Source of the DNA: a virus
Strand: one strand, 5' to 3'
UHGV virus genome: UHGV-0006354
Length of the DNA stretch: 30,849 nucleotides
Position 1 is the first letter of the stretch. Every line of letters begins with the position of its first letter. A program made the translations under genes and the position numbers. The notes under the pieces are model-generated. The model ran no database searches, was not told the origin of the DNA, and saw nothing but the letters and a program-made list of their open reading frames with translations. This document shows, in pieces, positions 159 to 9,517 of the stretch.

Positions 159-1208
159 TTATGCAACCTCTGCCGCCATATTGTCGCCAACATACAGCGA
201 TAACGGATTAAGGGTTACAGCTTGTTCAAGGTGGTCAGGAGCAAAGTGTGCATACTTCATTGTTTCTCGAATATTGGCATGCCCGAGAATTTTCTGCAGT
301 ACCAGTATATTCCCGCCGTTCATCATAAAATGCGCACCAAAAGTATGACGCAAAACGTGCGTCTTCTGCCCTTCCGTCAATTCAATATTCGTTAGTTTGA
401 GCATCTTCTTAAACTCCTGATAGCAGGGTTTAAACATTCTGCCTTGACGTACGGACAACTCGTCGTACAGCCATTTAGGAATAGGAACTGTGCGATTCTT
501 CTTACCTTTGGTTTTGGTGAACGTCAGTTTATATGGAGAAAGTTGAGGGCGGGTCAATCTCTCCGCTTCCCCCCATCGAGCGCCGGTTGCAAGGCACACC
601 TTAACAATCATGGTGAGGTCTTCTTTGCCGTATTGCTCGCAGGCTCGAAACAGCTCCGGGAGCTGAGACAAAGTTAGCCAGGACATTTCTTTCTCAGCCT
701 CTTTGAATACTCGGATCCCATCAAGTGGATTGGGTAGGCTCCACTCCCCTAACCGGCGGAGCTCATTAAACACTGCTTCTAGGTATTGTTGTTCGCGATT
801 GACGGTTATAGGTTTGGCGATCCATTTCGAGGGGTCTTTATGATAACCGTTGTCTATTTCACCACGTAATCGACGGTCACGATAATGAGCCCAGTCTTTC
901 GCGGTAAGGCGAGATGCAATCGGGTCACCAAGCCCATTACATACGATTTGAAGCTTTGCTAACCTCGACTTACTGGCGACTAACGCTTGACCGTGCAAAT
1001 TGTGCCAAAGCTGAATAATCTCGCTTAAGCGTCGGCGGTCTTCTTTCTTGCCGAGCCACGGCTTATCTTCACTCTCGCTTTTGGTAAATGCTTCAAATGC
1101 CTCGGCCTCACCTTTGGTATTGAATTGCCGACGTATACGCCGCCCTTCTCGACCATTTGGATAGAGTTCACACAACCATTTTCCACTTTTTTGTTTACTT
1201 ACAGTCAT
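159..1208 (-). CDS. int: Tyrosine site-specific integrase, P2/186 Int family
   Basis: 349 aa, ATG at 1206-1208; C-terminal catalytic region HTFGAHFMMNGGNILVLQKILGHANIRETMKYAHF (R..HxxR..Y) closely resembles P2 Int. Confidence 0.9.
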   Translation of the reverse strand: MTVSKQKSGKWLCELYPNGREGRRIRRQFNTKGEAEAFEAFTKSESEDKPWLGKKEDRRRLSEIIQLWHNLHGQALVASKSRLAKLQIVCNGLGDPIASRLTAKDWAHYRDRRLRGEIDNGYHKDPSKWIAKPITVNREQQYLEAVFNELRRLGEWSLPNPLDGIRVFKEAEKEMSWLTLSQLPELFRACEQYGKEDLTMIVKVCLATGARWGEAERLTRPQLSPYKLTFTKTKGKKNRTVPIPKWLYDELSVRQGRMFKPCYQEFKKMLKLTNIELTEGQKTHVLRHTFGAHFMMNGGNILVLQKILGHANIRETMKYAHFAPDHLEQAVTLNPLSLYVGDNMAAEVA

Positions 1209-1232: not shown

Positions 1233-1571
1233 TTAATTACAAAGGGCTGTAGCGGCATCAATCACCGGTGAAATTGAAATTTTAACGCCGTCATACTCAG
1301 GGTCATCCTTCCATACGTCATCTAAGTTAGACCCCTCCAGCTTTCCTGATTTAACAGCATCTACCGCCATGCCATTCAGAGGATATCTATCATCAGTTTT
1401 GATGTCATACACAAAAGCATAAGCACGGTTAACACATGATACCTTTGCCTTTTCAAAGGTTAGAGGCCACTTGTCACCATATGCAGCGCCGTCTATCTCT
1501 TTAAACTTCTCAGCGGCTATGGCTGAGGAAGAAAGTGCAATGCAGACTATCGCAAATATAAACTTTTTCAT
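1233..1571 (-). CDS. Small secreted/periplasmic protein of unknown function (cargo gene between int and cI)
   Basis: 112 aa; N-terminal signal peptide MKKFIFAIVCIALSSSAIAAE; two Cys (46 and 111); AAGGAG Shine-Dalgarno 7 nt upstream; visibly AT-richer than neighbours. Confidence 0.6.
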   Translation of the reverse strand: MKKFIFAIVCIALSSSAIAAEKFKEIDGAAYGDKWPLTFEKAKVSCVNRAYAFVYDIKTDDRYPLNGMAVDAVKSGKLEGSNLDDVWKDDPEYDGVKISISPVIDAATALCN

Positions 1572-1580
1572 TACTGCTCC

Positions 1581-2426
1581 TTAAACATGCTTTTCCAAAG
1601 TAAAAATAACCGCACCTGATGGTGTGATATCTGAAATATTACATTCAAACTCAGCAGACTTATTTGATAACCTGACCTTTCCGCCTGGCAACCTGATTAC
1701 GTCAAAAACATCGAGTGCGCCATCAATACCAATAAGCCAGCGACCATTTCCTATCTTCGAGTTAGAACTATCAACAAGCCAAGATGTGCTCACACCATCA
1801 ATAAACACTAAATCATCAGTATTTGATGGAACCATAGATATATCAGGAGTCCAGCGTCCGATATCTTTGAGTTCGCCCGCCTCGAGGCGGCACTTTCTAA
1901 TCGTTAAAGCATTTGCCGGTTCACCATCATTACTGTTACGCATCTGGCCTTTTCCGGTTGATAACCATTCTAACGATACGCCAGTATCAAGGGCGCAAGT
2001 GACAACCACGTCACCGGGGAAAAAATCGCGTCTAACCCAAGTGCTTATAGTGCCGGAAGATATACCTAATAAATCTCCAAGCTCTTTTTGCAGAGTAAAA
2101 CCATACGCATCGAGAATCCGACGCAGAACCGCCCTCCCTCCATTTGCCATGATTTCATCATAGAGTTGCTTACCTTTAAGCTTAGTTTTCACCACTTCAA
2201 ATCTTGCATTTGCAAGCTCACCATTAATTAGCCATCGCAGGTCAGCTCCAGTATCAAGAGCACACTCAACGAAAACGTTGCTAGGGATTACGTTTCTAGC
2301 AAGCCAGCTACTCACGTTGTTTGCATGTATGCCAAGCCTTTCGGCTAGTTCCTTTTGCTGCTTAAAGCCGTATGCAGAAAGGACACGTTCCAATGCGGCA
2401 GACGCATTAACATCATTTTTAGACAT
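1581..2426 (-). CDS. cI: CI-type immunity repressor with two tandem 186-CI-like HTH domains
   Basis: Track ORF 1581-2615 trimmed to internal ATG (MSKND) at 2424-2426; internal repeat YGFKQQKELAERLGI..VFVECALDTGADLRWLINGE and YGFTLQKELGDLLGI..VVVTCALDTGVSLEWLSTGKG; no recognisable S24 Ser-Lys autocleavage motif. Confidence 0.7.
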   Translation of the reverse strand: MSKNDVNASAALERVLSAYGFKQQKELAERLGIHANNVSSWLARNVIPSNVFVECALDTGADLRWLINGELANARFEVVKTKLKGKQLYDEIMANGGRAVLRRILDAYGFTLQKELGDLLGISSGTISTWVRRDFFPGDVVVTCALDTGVSLEWLSTGKGQMRNSNDGEPANALTIRKCRLEAGELKDIGRWTPDISMVPSNTDDLVFIDGVSTSWLVDSSNSKIGNGRWLIGIDGALDVFDVIRLPGGKVRLSNKSAEFECNISDITPSGAVIFTLEKHV

Positions 2427-2447
2427 GTGACACCAACAATAATTTTG

Positions 2448-2476
2448 TTTACAACCAAAATTTAGCGATCTATATT
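2448..2476 (+). promoter_or_regulatory. Candidate rightward lytic promoter (pR-like) in the cI/apl switch region
   Basis: -35 TTTACA (2448-2453), 17-nt spacer, -10 TATATT (2471-2476); about 60 nt upstream of the 2540 ATG. Confidence 0.4.
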
Positions 2477-2539
2477 GGTGCTCATCGACCAAGATGCACA
2501 CCACTGCACTACATTTCAAACAACAGGAGATAATGCGAT

Positions 2540-2911
2540 ATGTCAGATGCAAAATCAATCTCGACGAACGACTCGCAAAACTCACAAAATCAAACTGTGA
2601 TGCTAGATCCAACACAGTTTGATGCCATCGTTACCGCCATGCTGCCAGCTCTACAGACAATGATTCGCTCCGCTATGTCAGACACGATGACTGTGAAAGA
2701 CTTCGCCGCTACTCGCGGTGTTAGCGAGCGTCTGGTCTGGCAATGGCTCGATGAGGGAGTCCTTCTCAAAGCTCCGACCAAAGACTTTTCCAACAAAGAG
2801 GAAGCTGCTAAACGAAGCCGAACCCTCGTAAATGTAAAAGCATGGCGCGATAAGCTGACTCAACAAGCGATTGATTGTCGCTACATCGACCAGCGCACCG
2901 CTCTTAACTGA
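2540..2911 (+). CDS. Apl/Cox-like HTH regulator-excisionase, first gene of the lytic operon
   Basis: 123 aa, divergent from cI; HTH-like segment VKDFAATRGVSERLVWQWLDEGVL; an internal start at MLDPTQ (2600) is possible. Confidence 0.55.
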   Translation: MSDAKSISTNDSQNSQNQTVMLDPTQFDAIVTAMLPALQTMIRSAMSDTMTVKDFAATRGVSERLVWQWLDEGVLLKAPTKDFSNKEEAAKRSRTLVNVKAWRDKLTQQAIDCRYIDQRTALN

Positions 2912-2943
2912 ATTTGATTATGCAAGTTAGAGGGAATTTAACC

Positions 2944-3453
2944 ATGTTTGATTTTCAGGTTTCCAAACATCCCCACTATGACGAAGCATGCCGCATTTTC
3001 GCACAGCGTCACAACATGGCGAAGCTGGCCGAGCGTGCAGGTATGAACGTTCAAACGTTACGTAACAAGCTCAACCCGGAACAGCCTCACCAGTTCACGC
3101 CGCCTGAATTGTGGCTGCTGACTGACCTGACCGAAGACTCAACCCTCATTGATGGTTTTTTAGCGCAGATTCACTGCCTACCATGCGTGCCGGTTAATGA
3201 GTTGGCTAAAGACAAATTGCAGTCTTATGTCATGCGCGCAATGCGTGAACTCGGCGAACTGGCGAGCGGCGCGGTATCTGATGAACGTCTGACCACTGCC
3301 CGTAAGCACAACATGATTGAAAGCGTTAACTCCGGCATTCGCATGTTGTCATTGTCGGCTCTGGCGCTGCATGCACGTCTGCAGACTAATCCAGCTATGT
3401 CGAGCGTGGTCGATACCATGAGCGGTATTGGCGCATCGTTTGGTCTGATTTGA
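2944..3453 (+). CDS. cII: CII-like lysogeny-establishment transcriptional activator (186 CII type)
   Basis: 169 aa from ATG 2944 (track ORF begins at TTG 2914); GAGGG Shine-Dalgarno; N-terminus MFDFQVSKHPHYDEACRIFAQRHNMAKLAERAGMNVQTLRNKLNPEQ matches my recollection of 186 CII. Confidence 0.7.
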   Translation: MFDFQVSKHPHYDEACRIFAQRHNMAKLAERAGMNVQTLRNKLNPEQPHQFTPPELWLLTDLTEDSTLIDGFLAQIHCLPCVPVNELAKDKLQSYVMRAMRELGELASGAVSDERLTTARKHNMIESVNSGIRMLSLSALALHARLQTNPAMSSVVDTMSGIGASFGLI

Positions 3454-4480: not shown

Positions 4481-6703
4481 TTGGCTGTTCAATTCGCTTA
4501 TCCGTGGAACGTCCCACGGTCGGCAATCTCCAGCCCATACCTTACTTATGAGCAACAGCATCGCCGCGACCGTATGTTCGCGGCTTTGCTGCATGCAAAA
4601 AAGGTGCTTTCTCTCCAGCCCGACTGCGTGCGGTTAGATGTTTATCGCACTGCTGCGGTGCTGGAGCAAAATCAGGGTAGTCAACGAGCCAATGCATTTT
4701 TAATCAACTTCTGCAAAAAGGCATTGCCGCGTCTTGAACTGGTCGCAAAAAAATACGAATGCGCTGGTATCAATAGCAAGGTATCAACCGCTGTTTTTGG
4801 AAGTCATTTTGATACTCAGCAAATGCAATATCTGTCGTCACGCATGGTTAATATGGTCGCCCGATATAACCGTCTCCCGGATATGTCGCGCGCTGATGTT
4901 GACCTGTTGGCCGCTGATATTGCTAATTTCATTCGTGGTGAACTTGCCAACATTAATGACCACGGATTCGGCGAGCTTAAAACGCTGTACACCTGGTATA
5001 TTCGTGCTGGCTTTATTTCCCTCCAATTTAACGTTATCCCACCACATTGGGAGCGGGTTGAAAAAAAATATGTCGGTGCGGATGAAATCGCACCGGCTAT
5101 CGCCAAAATGTTTAACGATGGGTGGTGGCGCGGTCGTTTGCGCCGTGTTGCAGCTACGTGGCGCGAACACCTGCAAATTGCAGTCGGCAACGTCAGTAAG
5201 AAAAAAAACACTTACGCGAGTAAAAACTGCGTGACTGACTGGCGTGAACAAAAGCGCCGCACTCGTGAATTTCTCAAAGGTCTGGATCTCGAAGACGAAG
5301 ACGGCAACCGTATCAGCCTGATTGAAAAATATGATGGCTCAGTTGCTAACCCTGCGATTCGCCGCTGTGAGCTCATGACCCGCATTCGTGGGTTTGAAAA
5401 CATCTGTAATGAGCTCGGTTATGTCGGTGAGTTTTACACTCTAACCGCGCCGTCAAAATATCACGCCACGACTAAAGCCGGTTACCGTAACAGCAAATGG
5501 AGCGGTGCCAGCCCGGCTGACACGCAAAACTATCTAACCGGTATCTGGGCGCGTATCCGTGCCAAACTACATCGGGAAGATGTCCGTATTTTCGGTATTC
5601 GTGTCGCCGAGCCTCATCACGACGGCACTCCACACTGGCACATGCTGATGTTCATGCTGCCGGAAGATGTTGAATATGTTCGCTCCATCGTCCGTAAATA
5701 CGCATGGAAAGAAGACCGCCACGAACTGAAAAGCGATAAATCCAAAAAAGCACGTTTCCACGCCGAGTCCATTGACCCAGAGAAAGGGAGCGCAACCGGC
5801 TATGTTGCTAAATACATTTCAAAAAATATCGACGGTTATGCTCTCGATGGTGAAACCGATGATGAAAGCGGTGAGCTGCTGAAAGAGACAGCCCCCGCCG
5901 TTTCAGCATGGGCTGCGCGCTGGCACATCCGTCAGTTTCAGTTTATCGGTGGTGCGCCGGTGACGGTTTACCGTGAGTTGCGTCGCCTCGCTGATACCGA
6001 AACCGCGCACGGACTGAGCGTTGAGTTTGCCGCCGTCCATGATGCCGCCGACGCTGGTGACTGGGCTGGTTATGTTAATGCTCAGGGTGGGCCGTTTGTC
6101 CGTCGCGATGATTTACAGGTGCGCACACTGTATGAACCGCGTACCGAGCTTAATCAGTACGGTGAGGAAACAGTATGTATTAAGGGAGTCTACGATTCCT
6201 CCATAGGTGCAGGGAGTCCGATTTTAACCCGGCTCACTCAGTGGAAGATTGTTCCGAAGCGTGCTGTTGATTTGGCCGTTGACCTTCAGGACGGCAAAGC
6301 CGTCCCTCGGAGTTCTGTCAATAACTGTACGGGAAGCGAAAGCGATCCACCGATACTGGATTTAACAAAACCACTGAGTCGGCGTGAAAGACGAGAATTG
6401 ACCAACCGACTCAGGAAGCAAAAGCCAGCAGCACGGCGAAAATTCATCCACGGAACGGATGAGCAAAACGCAGCTATAGCTAAAACTATCGACGAGATAC
6501 ATCTGACAACCGGCATTAATATCAGCCGGGGCGAAGCCCTGCACCTGATGGCCGGTGGTAAAAGTTGTTTTGATGGTAAATGGCTACGCGGAACGGCCAA
6601 AGGAGAAATATTTTCCGCAGCACCATCGCATGAGGCTAAAGCTCGGAAAATCCTTAATCGTGTTGCGGCGATGGCTGAAGCATCAAAACCAATACATGAG
6701 TAA
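4481..6703 (+). CDS. A: Rolling-circle replication initiation endonuclease (P2 gpA family)
   Basis: 740 aa; TTG start with N-terminus MAV..AYPWNVPR like P2 A; conserved EPHHDGTPHWHMLMF HUH-type motif and YVAKYISKNIDGY tyrosine motif. Confidence 0.85.
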   Translation: MAVQFAYPWNVPRSAISSPYLTYEQQHRRDRMFAALLHAKKVLSLQPDCVRLDVYRTAAVLEQNQGSQRANAFLINFCKKALPRLELVAKKYECAGINSKVSTAVFGSHFDTQQMQYLSSRMVNMVARYNRLPDMSRADVDLLAADIANFIRGELANINDHGFGELKTLYTWYIRAGFISLQFNVIPPHWERVEKKYVGADEIAPAIAKMFNDGWWRGRLRRVAATWREHLQIAVGNVSKKKNTYASKNCVTDWREQKRRTREFLKGLDLEDEDGNRISLIEKYDGSVANPAIRRCELMTRIRGFENICNELGYVGEFYTLTAPSKYHATTKAGYRNSKWSGASPADTQNYLTGIWARIRAKLHREDVRIFGIRVAEPHHDGTPHWHMLMFMLPEDVEYVRSIVRKYAWKEDRHELKSDKSKKARFHAESIDPEKGSATGYVAKYISKNIDGYALDGETDDESGELLKETAPAVSAWAARWHIRQFQFIGGAPVTVYRELRRLADTETAHGLSVEFAAVHDAADAGDWAGYVNAQGGPFVRRDDLQVRTLYEPRTELNQYGEETVCIKGVYDSSIGAGSPILTRLTQWKIVPKRAVDLAVDLQDGKAVPRSSVNNCTGSESDPPILDLTKPLSRRERRELTNRLRKQKPAARRKFIHGTDEQNAAIAKTIDEIHLTTGINISRGEALHLMAGGKSCFDGKWLRGTAKGEIFSAAPSHEAKARKILNRVAAMAEASKPIHE

Positions 6704-6777: not shown

Positions 6778-6797
6778 TACTGTATAAATATACAGTA
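6778..6797 (+). promoter_or_regulatory. LexA operator (SOS box) 20 nt upstream of the 6817 ORF
   Basis: TACTGTATAAATATACAGTA; CTGT-N8-ACAG at 6780-6795, near-perfect match to the E. coli LexA consensus. Confidence 0.7.
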
Positions 6798-6816: not shown

Positions 6817-6999
6817 ATGGTTGGCGAACATTTCAGCCGAACGCAGCAAAAGTGGGCTTGTGTGCAATTTATTGCCGAGGTATCTCTGATTGCAAACTGC
6901 AAGCCATCAGACTTAAAGCTCGCGCTCACTCTCATTGCAGACCTAGCAAACAGCGAAAATAACGAAACCGAAGATGATAATTTTTATAAGGCTGATTAG
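6817..6999 (+). CDS. LexA-controlled small protein, candidate Tum-like antirepressor module
   Basis: 60 aa; GGGAGG Shine-Dalgarno; directly downstream of the SOS box; ends at TAG in the same frame as the following DinI-like ORF. Confidence 0.5.
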   Translation: MVGEHFSRTQQKWACVQFIAEVSLIANCKPSDLKLALTLIADLANSENNETEDDNFYKAD

Positions 7000-7002
7000 A
7001 TT

Positions 7003-7236
7003 ATGAGAATCAATATCACGTTGGATAAAGAGCAAAAAATTAGTCAGACAACGTTGGATGCACTTGAGGCTGAGCTGTACCGCAATCTTCAACCTATTTA
7101 CCCAAAGACTGCTATCCGCATTCGTAAGGGCTCAGCTAATGGCGTTGAGCTAAGCGGTTTGAAACTGGACGAAGATAAAAAACGAGTGATGGAAATCATG
7201 CAGCAGGTATGGGAGGACGATAGCTGGCTGCATTAA
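7003..7236 (+). CDS. DinI-family protein
   Basis: 77 aa; MRINITLDKEQKIS...ALEAEL...KKRVMEIMQQVWEDDSWLH follows the E. coli DinI pattern (MRIEV..., ...ISEILQETWESADDW). Confidence 0.7.
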   Translation: MRINITLDKEQKISQTTLDALEAELYRNLQPIYPKTAIRIRKGSANGVELSGLKLDEDKKRVMEIMQQVWEDDSWLH

Positions 7237-8533: not shown

Positions 8534-9517
8534 CTAATTTACATGTATGTAGAGTTCACTGTCACTAGACCAGTCGGGGCACTCTAAAGCAAGCCCAAAC
8601 TGCTTGTATATTTCATCAATGACTAATGTTATCTCAAGATAATCATCAAAACCTGTAATGCGTTGATCATTGAATTTTTCATAAAGATTCTGAAATGCAG
8701 CTCCTAACTCTGATAATTGATTCCTTATTTTTGAGTTGGATAGTGTAAGGGCTAGTTTTGGGTCGTATTCATTAATATTGATGTTTAGAGAATGGACGTA
8801 ACCTATCGCATAAGCATAGGAGTTGATAATTAGCTTGAAGCGTTTTTTTGCTTCAAGATACATTTCATTCAGAGAAATATTGCCTCTTTTATAGTTCAGA
8901 GTGAGATTTTCAATCTCGTCAGACACTTCATTTACAACAGTATCAAGATTCTCTAGAAATAAATCGATAGTCTCTTGAGGGGCTGACCACGAAGACATGT
9001 AATTAGCAAGATATTCAGACCATGCACGAGTGGCTGTGATAAGCAGCGCGTCGCCATACTCGTTGACTGTAAAGTTTTGGGCTAAGCATGTTAGTAAGTT
9101 TTTTTCATGTACGTGCACTAACTCATGGTGAATGCGATGGATGACTGCGCGGTATCCTTCTTCATTTAATTTCAGGAAGCTACCATCATTAAAAAGCTCA
9201 CCAAAAAAATCAATAGATAGCACAAGGGTATATTCTTCACATAGCCCATCGCTGCCAATTTTTGTTACTAATTGCCCGACGGCTGCGCCCTGTTTGCTAT
9301 TGGTAAATGAACTAGGGGATTTGTGTTGGTAAATGGAAGTCACATTTTGAAGAGCTTCACTGAAATTATAGGAGACAACCACGCATTTTAATTTTGAGAT
9401 ATCAAGATTGAGATTTTTTGTTAAGACTCGAATAGCTTCTAGCGTGAAGTTACCGATATTATTTGCTTCTTGCTCAGTAGTGAAACCTTCGAGGGTTATT
9501 TTAAAATCAGTTTCCAA
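8534..9517 (-). CDS. AT-rich cargo gene: HExxH-motif (zinc-metallopeptidase-like) protein of unknown function, inserted between cos and portal gene Q
   Basis: 327 aa, TTG start with GGAG Shine-Dalgarno; HELVH at residues 131-135; no signal peptide or transmembrane segment; plausible sigma70 promoter (TTGAAG-17-TATAGT on minus strand, plus about 9557-9585). Confidence 0.8.
   Translation of the reverse strand: METDFKITLEGFTTEQEANNIGNFTLEAIRVLTKNLNLDISKLKCVVVSYNFSEALQNVTSIYQHKSPSSFTNSKQGAAVGQLVTKIGSDGLCEEYTLVLSIDFFGELFNDGSFLKLNEEGYRAVIHRIHHELVHVHEKNLLTCLAQNFTVNEYGDALLITATRAWSEYLANYMSSWSAPQETIDLFLENLDTVVNEVSDEIENLTLNYKRGNISLNEMYLEAKKRFKLIINSYAYAIGYVHSLNININEYDPKLALTLSNSKIRNQLSELGAAFQNLYEKFNDQRITGFDDYLEITLVIDEIYKQFGLALECPDWSSDSELYIHVN

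Follow-up and report, generated by a model that had tools for sequence, protein, structure and literature searches.

UHGV-0006354 is a viral genome sequence of 30,849 nucleotides (this whole stretch is referred to here as the window) from a phage or prophage of the PSP3/186-like group (Peduoviridae, Eganvirus-like), and the element examined here is its immunity repressor gene, cI (1581..2426, minus strand). The 846-nt open reading frame (ORF), with the ATG at 2426 and the stop codon at 1581-1583, encodes a 281-amino-acid (aa) member of the PSP3-type CI family that carries two DNA-binding helix-turn-helix (HTH) domains, in the order D1 (outer HTH), linker, D2 (inner HTH), linker, C-terminal domain (CTD). 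D1 is variable between phages and D2 is invariant across the family. The two heads probably divide the labor of repression, such that D1 domains would pair on type-specific operators at the lytic promoter pR, and D2 domains would pair on a palindrome found family-wide; this assignment of domains to sites is based on co-variation and on analogy with single-domain relatives.

Pfam matches Phage_CI_repr (PF07022) to UHGV-0006354 CI in two stretches (160 bits in total vs. a cut-off of 22) and Phage_CI_C (PF16452) to aa 176-269 (69 bits vs. a cut-off of 27), and the protein is assigned to phrog_4, transcriptional repressor, in PHROGs. The two repeats align with each other by BLASTP (aa 1-85 vs. aa 86-281), with residues 10-70 pairing with 99-159 at 51% identity (E 3e-22). 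A custom hidden Markov model (HMM) of both repeats and the N-terminal domain (NTD) of coliphage 186 CI yields envelopes at 8-75 (125 bits) and 97-163 (124 bits), scores that are partly circular because both repeats served as seeds. Pfam, HMM, and repeat alignment therefore concur with the initial annotation, which had proposed an immunity repressor with two 186-CI-type HTH domains at residues ∼8-75 and 98-165 and had expected Phage_CI_repr twice; both repeats score as HTH domains. The motif that it reported at the end of both repeats (CALDTG...WL..G) is seen as CALDTG..L.WL..G, and the C-terminal domain that it placed behind them is present (about 105 aa). By comparison of size, which it also suggested, 186 CI has 192 aa and one HTH, vs. 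281 aa and two HTH domains in UHGV-0006354 CI. The 186 CI structure 2FJR (189 residues) aligns to aa 100-274 only (E 4e-21); thus, the added unit is the N-terminal repeat (D1), and D2 plus CTD constitute a canonical 186-type CI.

An AlphaFold2 model (using 45 relatives) has three folded modules: D1 helices at 8-68, D2 helices at 86-157, and a beta domain at 176-278, separated by linkers in which residues 72-82 and 164-172 have a predicted local distance difference test score (pLDDT) below 50. D1 (HMM envelope aa 8-75; 2202..2405, minus strand) bears the recognition helix IHANNVSSWLARNVI, and is followed by the D1–D2 linker (aa 71-87; 2166..2216, minus strand), of which residues 72-82 are predicted to be disordered. 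D2 (aa 88-163; 1938..2165, minus strand) bears the helix ISSGTISTWVRRDFF and is the ortholog of the one NTD that 186-type CIs have. After the D2–CTD linker (aa 164-175; 1902..1937, minus strand) comes the CTD (aa 176-281; 1584..1901, minus strand), a beta domain of the 186 CI type with a presumed role in oligomerization; the modeled CTD superposes on that of 186 CI (2FKD) with a template modeling score of 0.88 and a root mean square deviation of 1.9 Å. Peptidase_S24, the catalytic CTD of lambda CI/LexA-type repressors, is not matched by UHGV-0006354 CI in Pfam, and Foldseek detects only a distant resemblance to the LexA fold (E about 1e-5).

The start of cI upstream of D1 is common to relatives. 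In an alignment of 45 two-domain relatives (58-92% identity), the cI start codon has an identical position in 45/45, and a Shine–Dalgarno (SD)-like element (GGTG/TTGGTG) is kept before the ATG across D1 types. A genome scan identified 49 two-domain loci in many genera of Enterobacterales (loci share descent, so that locus counts here and below are not independent), and each of the 49 has an intact D1 under purifying selection. It is thus extremely improbable that the two-domain protein is an annotation artefact, whereby the true start would lie downstream of repeat 1, or repeat 1 would be decaying, and the functional CI would have a single domain. This possibility, the first part of which had been raised in the initial annotation, draws on the ancestral start region being embedded in the linker and on a Met at residue 93 of UHGV-0006354 CI; however, Met93 is not conserved (it is Leu in many relatives), no internal Met is conserved among the aligned relatives, the ancestral ATG has been lost in the UHGV-0006354 lineage, and pR lies upstream of D1 rather than D2.

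D1 and D2 have evolved very differently. Among the 45 relatives, the D2 HTH and the residues around it (L..GISSGTISTWVRRDFFPGDVVV.C) show little or no variation (invariant columns 122-141), and UHGV-0006354 CI carries the invariant PSP3-type helix ISSGTISTWVRRDFFPGDVVV within the same D1-D2-CTD order. By contrast with D2, the D1 recognition helix occurs in at least five types, including IHANNVSSWLARNVI in UHGV-0006354, IAKHSVSGWVQRDAI in PSP3, and VPSNSVSTWVQRNSF in Midge. In a neighbor-joining tree of 95 domains, D1 copies form their own long-branched group, and D2 copies group closely with the NTDs of single-domain CIs. Median ratios of nonsynonymous to synonymous substitution rates (dN/dS) are 0.145 for D1, 0.067 for D2, and 0.20 for the CTD, indicative of purifying selection on D1 and D2, and are relaxed in the linkers (0.49 for D1–D2, 0.79 for D2–CTD); these ratios are rough because synonymous sites are saturated in many pairs, including for D2. 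Within one D1 type (UHGV-0006354 vs. Salmonella phage SW9), D1 has a dN of 0.021 vs. a dS of 1.07.

The variability of D1 extends into the adjacent DNA. Between UHGV-0006354, PSP3, and Midge, the variable DNA runs from the pR -10 via the pR -35 and the cI start to the end of D1, such that UHGV-0006354/SW9, PSP3, and Midge differ from one another in both the D1 recognition helix and the pR-proximal DNA. This variable immunity module adjoins, at its right-hand edge, a conserved block of 79 bp (2482..2560; alignment columns 81-159) that is 100% identical in UHGV-0006354, SW9, PSP3, and Midge. The block, which is non-coding or start-of-gene sequence, lies between the pR -10 and the opening codons of the apl-like gene, and its flanks differ by 20-60%; it holds a putative lysogenic promoter pL, the SD and ATG of the apl-like gene, and the overlap of the convergent transcripts. 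The block might be conserved as a set of binding sites, as an RNA element, or as a recombination junction.

The predicted pR (2448..2476, plus strand; TTTACA-17 nt-TATATT, 10/12 consensus positions) reads into the apl/cox-like gene; its place and orientation are those of the annotated 186 pR, and both hexamers are conserved across relatives. Straddling its -35 is an inverted repeat, AATTTTG-N8-CAAAATT (2441..2462), which is a candidate D1-type operator. It is the sole such site in the window, although 25 of 100 shuffles produce one by chance. The repeat is conserved in the loci that share the UHGV-0006354 D1 helix type (SW9, L008, and L031) and is different in other D1 types: pR-proximal DNA has AAATCGCAAATGCGATT where D1 has the Kosakonia-type helix and TTTTATTTAACTGTAAATAAAA with another type, and the Midge-type and L033-type loci have direct repeats 21 bp apart at pR. 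From this co-variation, D1 most likely binds type-specific pR operators (about 2441-2462 in the window), and so would set immunity specificity. A listing of 12-mer direct and inverted repeats in the switch region gave type-specific repeats and no single D1 consensus, and a search of each locus for further copies of its pR-region 9-mers (one mismatch allowed) was too noisy to define operators. An outer inverted repeat around pR (CACCAA...TTGGTG) was discarded as a candidate site, as TTGGTG is the conserved SD-like element before the ATG in many D1 types.

The candidate binding site of D2 emerges from relatives that have only this domain. The genome scan also found 21 single-domain CIs of 192-196 aa (loci L055-L075; Rahnella, Ewingella, Franconibacter, Citrobacter), which lack D1 and have the D2 helix as their only HTH. 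They share the helix SSGTIS (SSGTIS...FPGDVVV), and their N-terminus, MQLDELEGG, corresponds to aa 88-96 of UHGV-0006354 CI. In 18 of these 21 loci the palindrome AACTTGCAnnTGCAAGTT fills the spacer of pR (TTGACA-17-TAGATT, on the strand opposite to cI), 56 nt upstream of the cI ATG, so that the palindrome constitutes the pR operator; copies at FL- and FR-like positions are mostly absent. In most two-domain loci the palindrome is instead situated inside cI at +208 to +226 (mean best mismatch 4.0) and at about -500, where the apl-like gene adjoins cII (4.5), as judged against a background of 6.9 mean best mismatches in random 170-bp windows. At pR of two-domain loci, the D2-type palindrome is at background level (6.1 mismatches). 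In PSP3, Midge, and SW9, it also precedes the late activator gene pag/ogr by about 45 bp, with 1-2 mismatches.

The window contains exactly two matches to the palindrome at ≤3 mismatches, both of which flank pR (0.11 expected; two or more in 0 of 100 shuffles). The FL-like site (2201..2218; ATCTTGCATTTGCAAGCT, two mismatches to AACTTGCANNTGCAAGTT) lies inside cI, in codons E70-F76, directly after D1. The FR-like site (2911..2928; AACTTG-CATAAT-CAAATT on the cI-sense strand, and AACTTG-CATAAT-CAAGTT in the best-conserved relatives) lies between the stop codon of the apl-like gene and the cII ATG. It overlaps a -10-like CATAAT that faces cI (pE-like), in agreement with the note in the 186 record that FR probably represses pE. 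In that record, CI sites are annotated at FL (inside cI, after the NTD), at FR (which begins at the last base of apl and ends about 15 bp before cII), and at pB; the FL- and FR-like sites of the window and the pB-like site of PSP3, Midge, and SW9 occupy these same places, and are candidate CI sites by sequence. Any pB-like palindrome of UHGV-0006354 would fall outside the window, because the window ends (30849) at the stop codon of tail gene D, before ogr/pag and its promoter. By sequence and by analogy with the single-domain CIs, D2 most likely binds the palindrome as a pair contributed by two subunits.

The FL-like site is both protein-coding and preserved as DNA. When the linker was shuffled among synonymous codons, the palindrome was better than expected at p ≤ 0.05 in 26/45 loci, with a mean of 3.9 mismatches observed vs. 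6.0 in shuffled sequences, and the DNA motif is retained although the peptide that it encodes varies (ELANAR, NLNLQD, and others). The linker palindrome is thus preserved beyond coding requirement. When the linker DNA of UHGV-0006354, PSP3, and Midge is aligned with the region upstream of single-domain cI genes, palindrome falls on palindrome and the ancestral ATG falls at about K86/Q87; outside the palindrome, identity is low, and homology there can be argued from position but not demonstrated by sequence. Measured from the palindrome center, the AYG codon conserved in the D2-type domain is 101.5 nt away in 17 of 18 single-domain loci, and 101.5 nt is also the modal distance in two-domain loci (16/37), with most others differing by multiples of 3 nt. 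From this shared distance, we infer that the D1–D2 linker is a former pR operator plus 5′ untranslated region (UTR) that is now translated. The two-domain gene probably arose when a second module of promoter/operator plus NTD was placed in frame upstream of a single-domain cI, by which the old pR operator and 5′UTR would have become the inter-domain linker, and the FL-like site within cI would be what survives of the old operator. The D2–CTD linker was searched for another FL-like site, as a sign of simple unequal crossover between FL and the pR operator, and has none (6.7 mismatches, equal to background).

Tandem duplication of this domain has occurred more than once. Klebsiella phage 4LV2017 encodes a 313-aa CI (L004, locus 2417-3358) that represents an independent, younger duplication in a different clade: its D1 and D2 copies can be aligned as DNA across about 215 nt, with the aligned stretch reaching about 10 nt ahead of the ancestral ATG, which is retained internally (HMEFTRGG). 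The annotated start of this cI is probably 18 codons too far upstream, the likely true start being MVMQNRGG. Other tandem Phage_CI_repr proteins are P0138; P0180 and P0194 (two CI_repr plus CI_C), which belong to a third lineage; and P0250 (two CI_repr plus Peptidase_S24). All of these resemble UHGV-0006354 CI in having two Phage_CI_repr domains before an oligomerization or cleavage domain, but they are independent duplications; the sequences thus indicate that the two-domain CI arose independently in at least one other CI lineage. Among distant matches, P0224 (525 aa) and P0252 (1170 aa) each have seven HTH_3 units.

How the two heads would operate can be modeled on 186. According to its title, a 2002 study by Shearwin et al. 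reportedly found that the single 186 HTH recognizes two distinct kinds of operator; this dual task may have been split between two domains after duplication. 186 CI assembles as seven dimers in a wheel (14-mer) around which DNA is wrapped, and loops to FL and FR (PMC3675496). UHGV-0006354 CI would multimerize through its CTD like 186 CI; D1 heads on pR would shut off the lytic operon and thereby relieve interference on pL; and D2 heads would hold the flanking palindromes, loop them to pR, and repress the pE-like and pB-like promoters. D2-type sites are self-complementary, as are some D1-type sites of the same geometry (for example, AAATCGCAAATGCGATT vs. AACTTGCAAATGCAAGTT), which implies that like domains from two subunits pair with each other.

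This like-with-like arrangement differs from that of a single-chain pseudo-dimer, in which D1 and D2 of one chain would occupy two halves or adjacent grooves of a composite operator, and a dimer could cover four grooves. The initial annotation had considered a single-chain dimer to follow from the duplicated domain, and such an arrangement is physically feasible: the linker between the HTH units is about 25 residues long and partly flexible, several D1 types have pR repeats about 21 bp apart, and isolated D2-like half-sites (TTTTGCAT and GTGTGCAT, cI-sense; roughly 2553-2560 and 2493-2500) are present in the conserved block by pR. Nevertheless, it is unlikely, given that no D2-type site rises above background at pR; that separate self-complementary palindromes exist for each domain type; that the recognition helices differ, and D1 and D2 evolve at very different rates; and that the AlphaFold2 monomer model predicts no defined D1–D2 packing or interface (predicted template modeling score 0.40, at which inter-domain geometry is uninformative). 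The other outcome that the initial annotation envisaged, altered operator geometry, holds in a loose sense only, in that the operator repertoire is apparently split between the domains.

A somewhat stronger competitor to divided labor, although still improbable, is that just one head does the binding. Either D2 would bind all sites, with D1 as an accessory (for affinity, as a decoy, or as a regulatory contact), or D1 would bind all sites, with D2 as a spacer and dock for the antirepressor TumA, and the palindromes as relics or as sites of another factor. Conservation of D2, CTD, and TumA together is compatible with this, as are the Lonsdalea loci that manage without the palindrome, and the intragenic palindrome, which goes back to an ancestral operator, might in part be a relic. 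Yet D1 is strongly purified within a type and co-varies with pR DNA; D2 has the same recognition helix as single-domain CIs, which must rely on it to bind DNA; non-relic copies of the palindrome exist at two further places (FR-like and pB-like); and the linker copy is kept beyond coding needs.

Division of labor between D1 and D2 thus remains the preferred explanation, and several points weigh against it. If D2 sites (including the pB-like site) are shared family-wide, heteroimmune phages should partly cross-repress one another, which is awkward if D1 is the sole determinant of immunity. The spacing of D1-type half-sites is inconsistent (spacers of 2, 4, or 8 bp, or a 21-bp interval between direct repeats); therefore, no clean D1 consensus can be given for the window, and the inverted repeat at pR is a candidate site only. 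Five Lonsdalea two-domain loci (L041-L045) lack the palindrome. Finally, three single-domain loci with the SSGTIS helix (L071, L074, L075) use another pR palindrome, ACCTC..GAGGT or ACCTTA..TAAGGT, such that a single helix can act, as in 186, on two kinds of site, and the case for a strict correspondence of one domain to one site is weakened. With respect to these exceptional loci, L041 and L042 have a LexA-box-like palindrome (ACTGTATTTATATACAGT) at about -382 from cI, upstream of the switch region; L071, L074, and L075 belong to Franconibacter, Citrobacter, and a contig labeled Chryseobacterium, and recall the two operator types of 186; and L071 also has a AACTTGCATAATCAAGCT site at -370.

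The induction module of UHGV-0006354 is consistent with 186-type control by an antirepressor. A perfect LexA box (CTGTATAAATATACAG; 6780..6795, plus strand) is the sole match in the window; one is expected by chance in 30 of 100 shuffles, but its position directly upstream of tumA supports it. The tumA-like antirepressor gene (6817..6999, plus strand) encodes 60 aa, and the TumA homolog is confined to the 10 phage records with a PSP3-type CI, in which it is 98-100% identical to PSP3 TumA, a reported antirepressor (PMC3121763). The dinI homolog that follows (7003..7236, plus strand; Pfam DinI, E 7e-24) corresponds to the second half of a split tum gene; tumA plus a separate dinI is a split version of 186 tum, as described for PSP3 and Fels-2. 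UHGV-0006354 thus has a LexA-controlled Tum-type antirepressor module and a repressor that lacks a self-cleavage domain, as in 186-type SOS induction, and antirepression is predicted from sequence. Following DNA damage, LexA cleavage would release TumA, which would inactivate CI, plausibly via the invariant D2/CTD.

In combination, these elements depict a two-headed repressor with a swappable immunity cassette (D1 plus pR), a D2 that serves family-wide flanking, pE-like, and late sites and is the antirepressor target, a linker that is an exonized operator fossil still bound by CI, and a duplication that is recurrent. We rate the likelihood of this entire combination as just short of even. If correct, it would be a natural case in which the dual specificity of one HTH was resolved by duplication and subfunctionalization. 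An exchange of no more than about 300 bp, covering the pR operators and D1, could create new immunity types and leave the oligomerization core, antirepressor, and flanking sites unchanged. Furthermore, promoter/operator DNA would have been turned into a protein linker while still an operator. If only D1 counts for immunity, cross-immunity predicted from whole-protein identity would mislead.

The two-domain architecture is widespread. UHGV-0006354 CI is 91.5% identical to the CIs of Salmonella phages SW9 and SI22, 73% to PSP3 CI (AAN08403, 286 aa) over aa 9-281, and 67% to those of Midge and RCIP0057, all at full length; the match to 186 CI is only piecemeal (33% identity). The CIs of PSP3, SEN1, SW9, SI22, Midge, and RCIP0057 have the same order of two domains (67-92% identity over the full length) and are accompanied by the same TumA and 79-bp switch block. 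A search of 5.8 billion proteins with UHGV-0006354 CI gave 1005 matches; the best 120 of these are all 267-289 aa (118 of them ≥275 aa), and their hosts are Klebsiella, Enterobacter, Salmonella, E. coli, Cronobacter, Kosakonia, and Brenneria. One cluster of similar proteins occurs on 737 contigs. In a 50%-identity library, about ten representatives (285-294 aa) cover query residues 7-280, and proteins of ∼190 aa cover 95-280 only. On the basis of these database matches, and because PSP3 was sequenced long ago, the two-domain CI is common and long deposited rather than unique. The rarity implied by the initial annotation, in which CI-type repressors were taken to have one DNA-binding domain per subunit, is therefore not borne out, the architecture being present in named phages and hundreds of prophages, and having arisen independently elsewhere.

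PSP3 CI was described by Nilsson et al. (2011; PMC3448106) as having "a longer C-terminal domain." We found no description of tandem CI domains (Phage_CI_repr, PF07022, PSP3, TumA) in the searchable literature, subscription journals being mostly outside its scope, and no functional study of the CI of PSP3, SEN1, SW9, SI22, Midge, or RCIP0057. As far as we could find, the two-headed variant has long been in databases yet has been neither described nor characterized. New here are the evolutionary split of D1 and D2, the co-variation of D1 types with pR DNA, the palindrome in the pR spacer of single-domain relatives with a D2-type helix, its placement in two-domain phages, and the FL-like site within linker codons at the spacing of an ancestral operator.

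The switch of UHGV-0006354 shares with that of coliphage 186 (CI of 192 aa; 2FJR, 2FKD) the PF07022 HTH, the PF16452 CTD, the order int-cI-pR/pL-apl-like-cII, a Tum-type antirepressor under LexA control, and palindromes that are candidate CI sites at the positions of FL and FR (and, in PSP3, Midge, and SW9, of pB). It differs in that 186 CI has one HTH per subunit and UHGV-0006354 CI has two with different helices; in that pR-type and flanking-type sites are apparently served by different domains; in that the FL-like site lies between two HTH domains; and in operator sequence (AACTTGCAnnTGCAAGTT in this family vs. ATTCAC-N5-GTGAAT in 186). In the single-chain 434 repressor, POU and paired domains, and MarA/AraC, two linked HTH units occupy adjacent grooves of one site. 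UHGV-0006354 CI differs from such engineered single-chain or bipartite HTH proteins, in which both units act on one site, in that the evidence points to separate sites. The 186 CI switch is among the best-studied alternatives to that of lambda, and for a specialist in it, the D1/D2 split, the small cassette of pR plus D1, and the operator fossil in the linker would be unexpected; all are directly testable. For prophage annotation, the relevance is that two-domain CIs are common in Klebsiella, Enterobacter, Salmonella, and E. coli.

The gene order of the window is int, DUF2511 gene, cI, pR, apl/cox-like gene, cII, gene A, LexA box, tumA, and dinI, and the layout of the switch is of the 186 type, with cI upstream of int (159-1208, minus strand) on the lysogenic strand, convergent pR and pL, and the apl/cox-like gene and cII on the lytic strand. 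The putative weak lysogenic promoter pL (2530..2558, minus strand; TTGATT-17 nt-CATTAT) was read from sequence; it scores 8/12, which is under the scan threshold, and lies within the 100%-conserved block, convergent with pR as in the annotated 186 pR/pL. The apl/cox-like gene (2540..2911, plus strand) opens the pR operon and encodes 123 aa (phrog_3554, with a weak match to the Cox-like excisionase phrog_575), for which there is no Pfam match. The cII gene (2944..3453, plus strand; Phage_CP76, PF06892, E 1.3e-46) was assigned the ATG at 2944 by likeness to the 510-nt cII of PSP3 and 186, and gene A is at 4481-6703.

At the start of the apl-like ORF, direct repeats CAAAATCAATCT and CAAAATCAAACT (2550-2561 and 2585-2596, 35 bp apart) have the conserved form TTGATTTTG on the opposite strand in relatives, with one copy overlapping the pL -35, and an inverted repeat (ATCAAACTGTGATG/CAACACAGTTTGAT) is present at 2589-2623. 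The repeats at 2550-2623 fall in codons of an SQNSQNQ repeat and may be Apl/Cox-like binding sites; the inverted repeat was rejected as a CI site, the left arm not being conserved in SW9 or PSP3. Between int and cI is a DUF2511 (YebY-like) gene (1233-1571, minus strand) for a secreted protein or lipoprotein, which is also present in PSP3, SW9, and Midge and absent from 186, and is probably a moron on the lysogenic transcript. An ORF of 327 aa (8534-9517, minus strand) yielded nothing in Pfam or PADLOC scans and matches only phrog_11743 (unknown function); it is AT-rich (35-40% GC vs. about 50% nearby) and resembles a cargo gene, possibly for defence, at a variable locus downstream of gene A.

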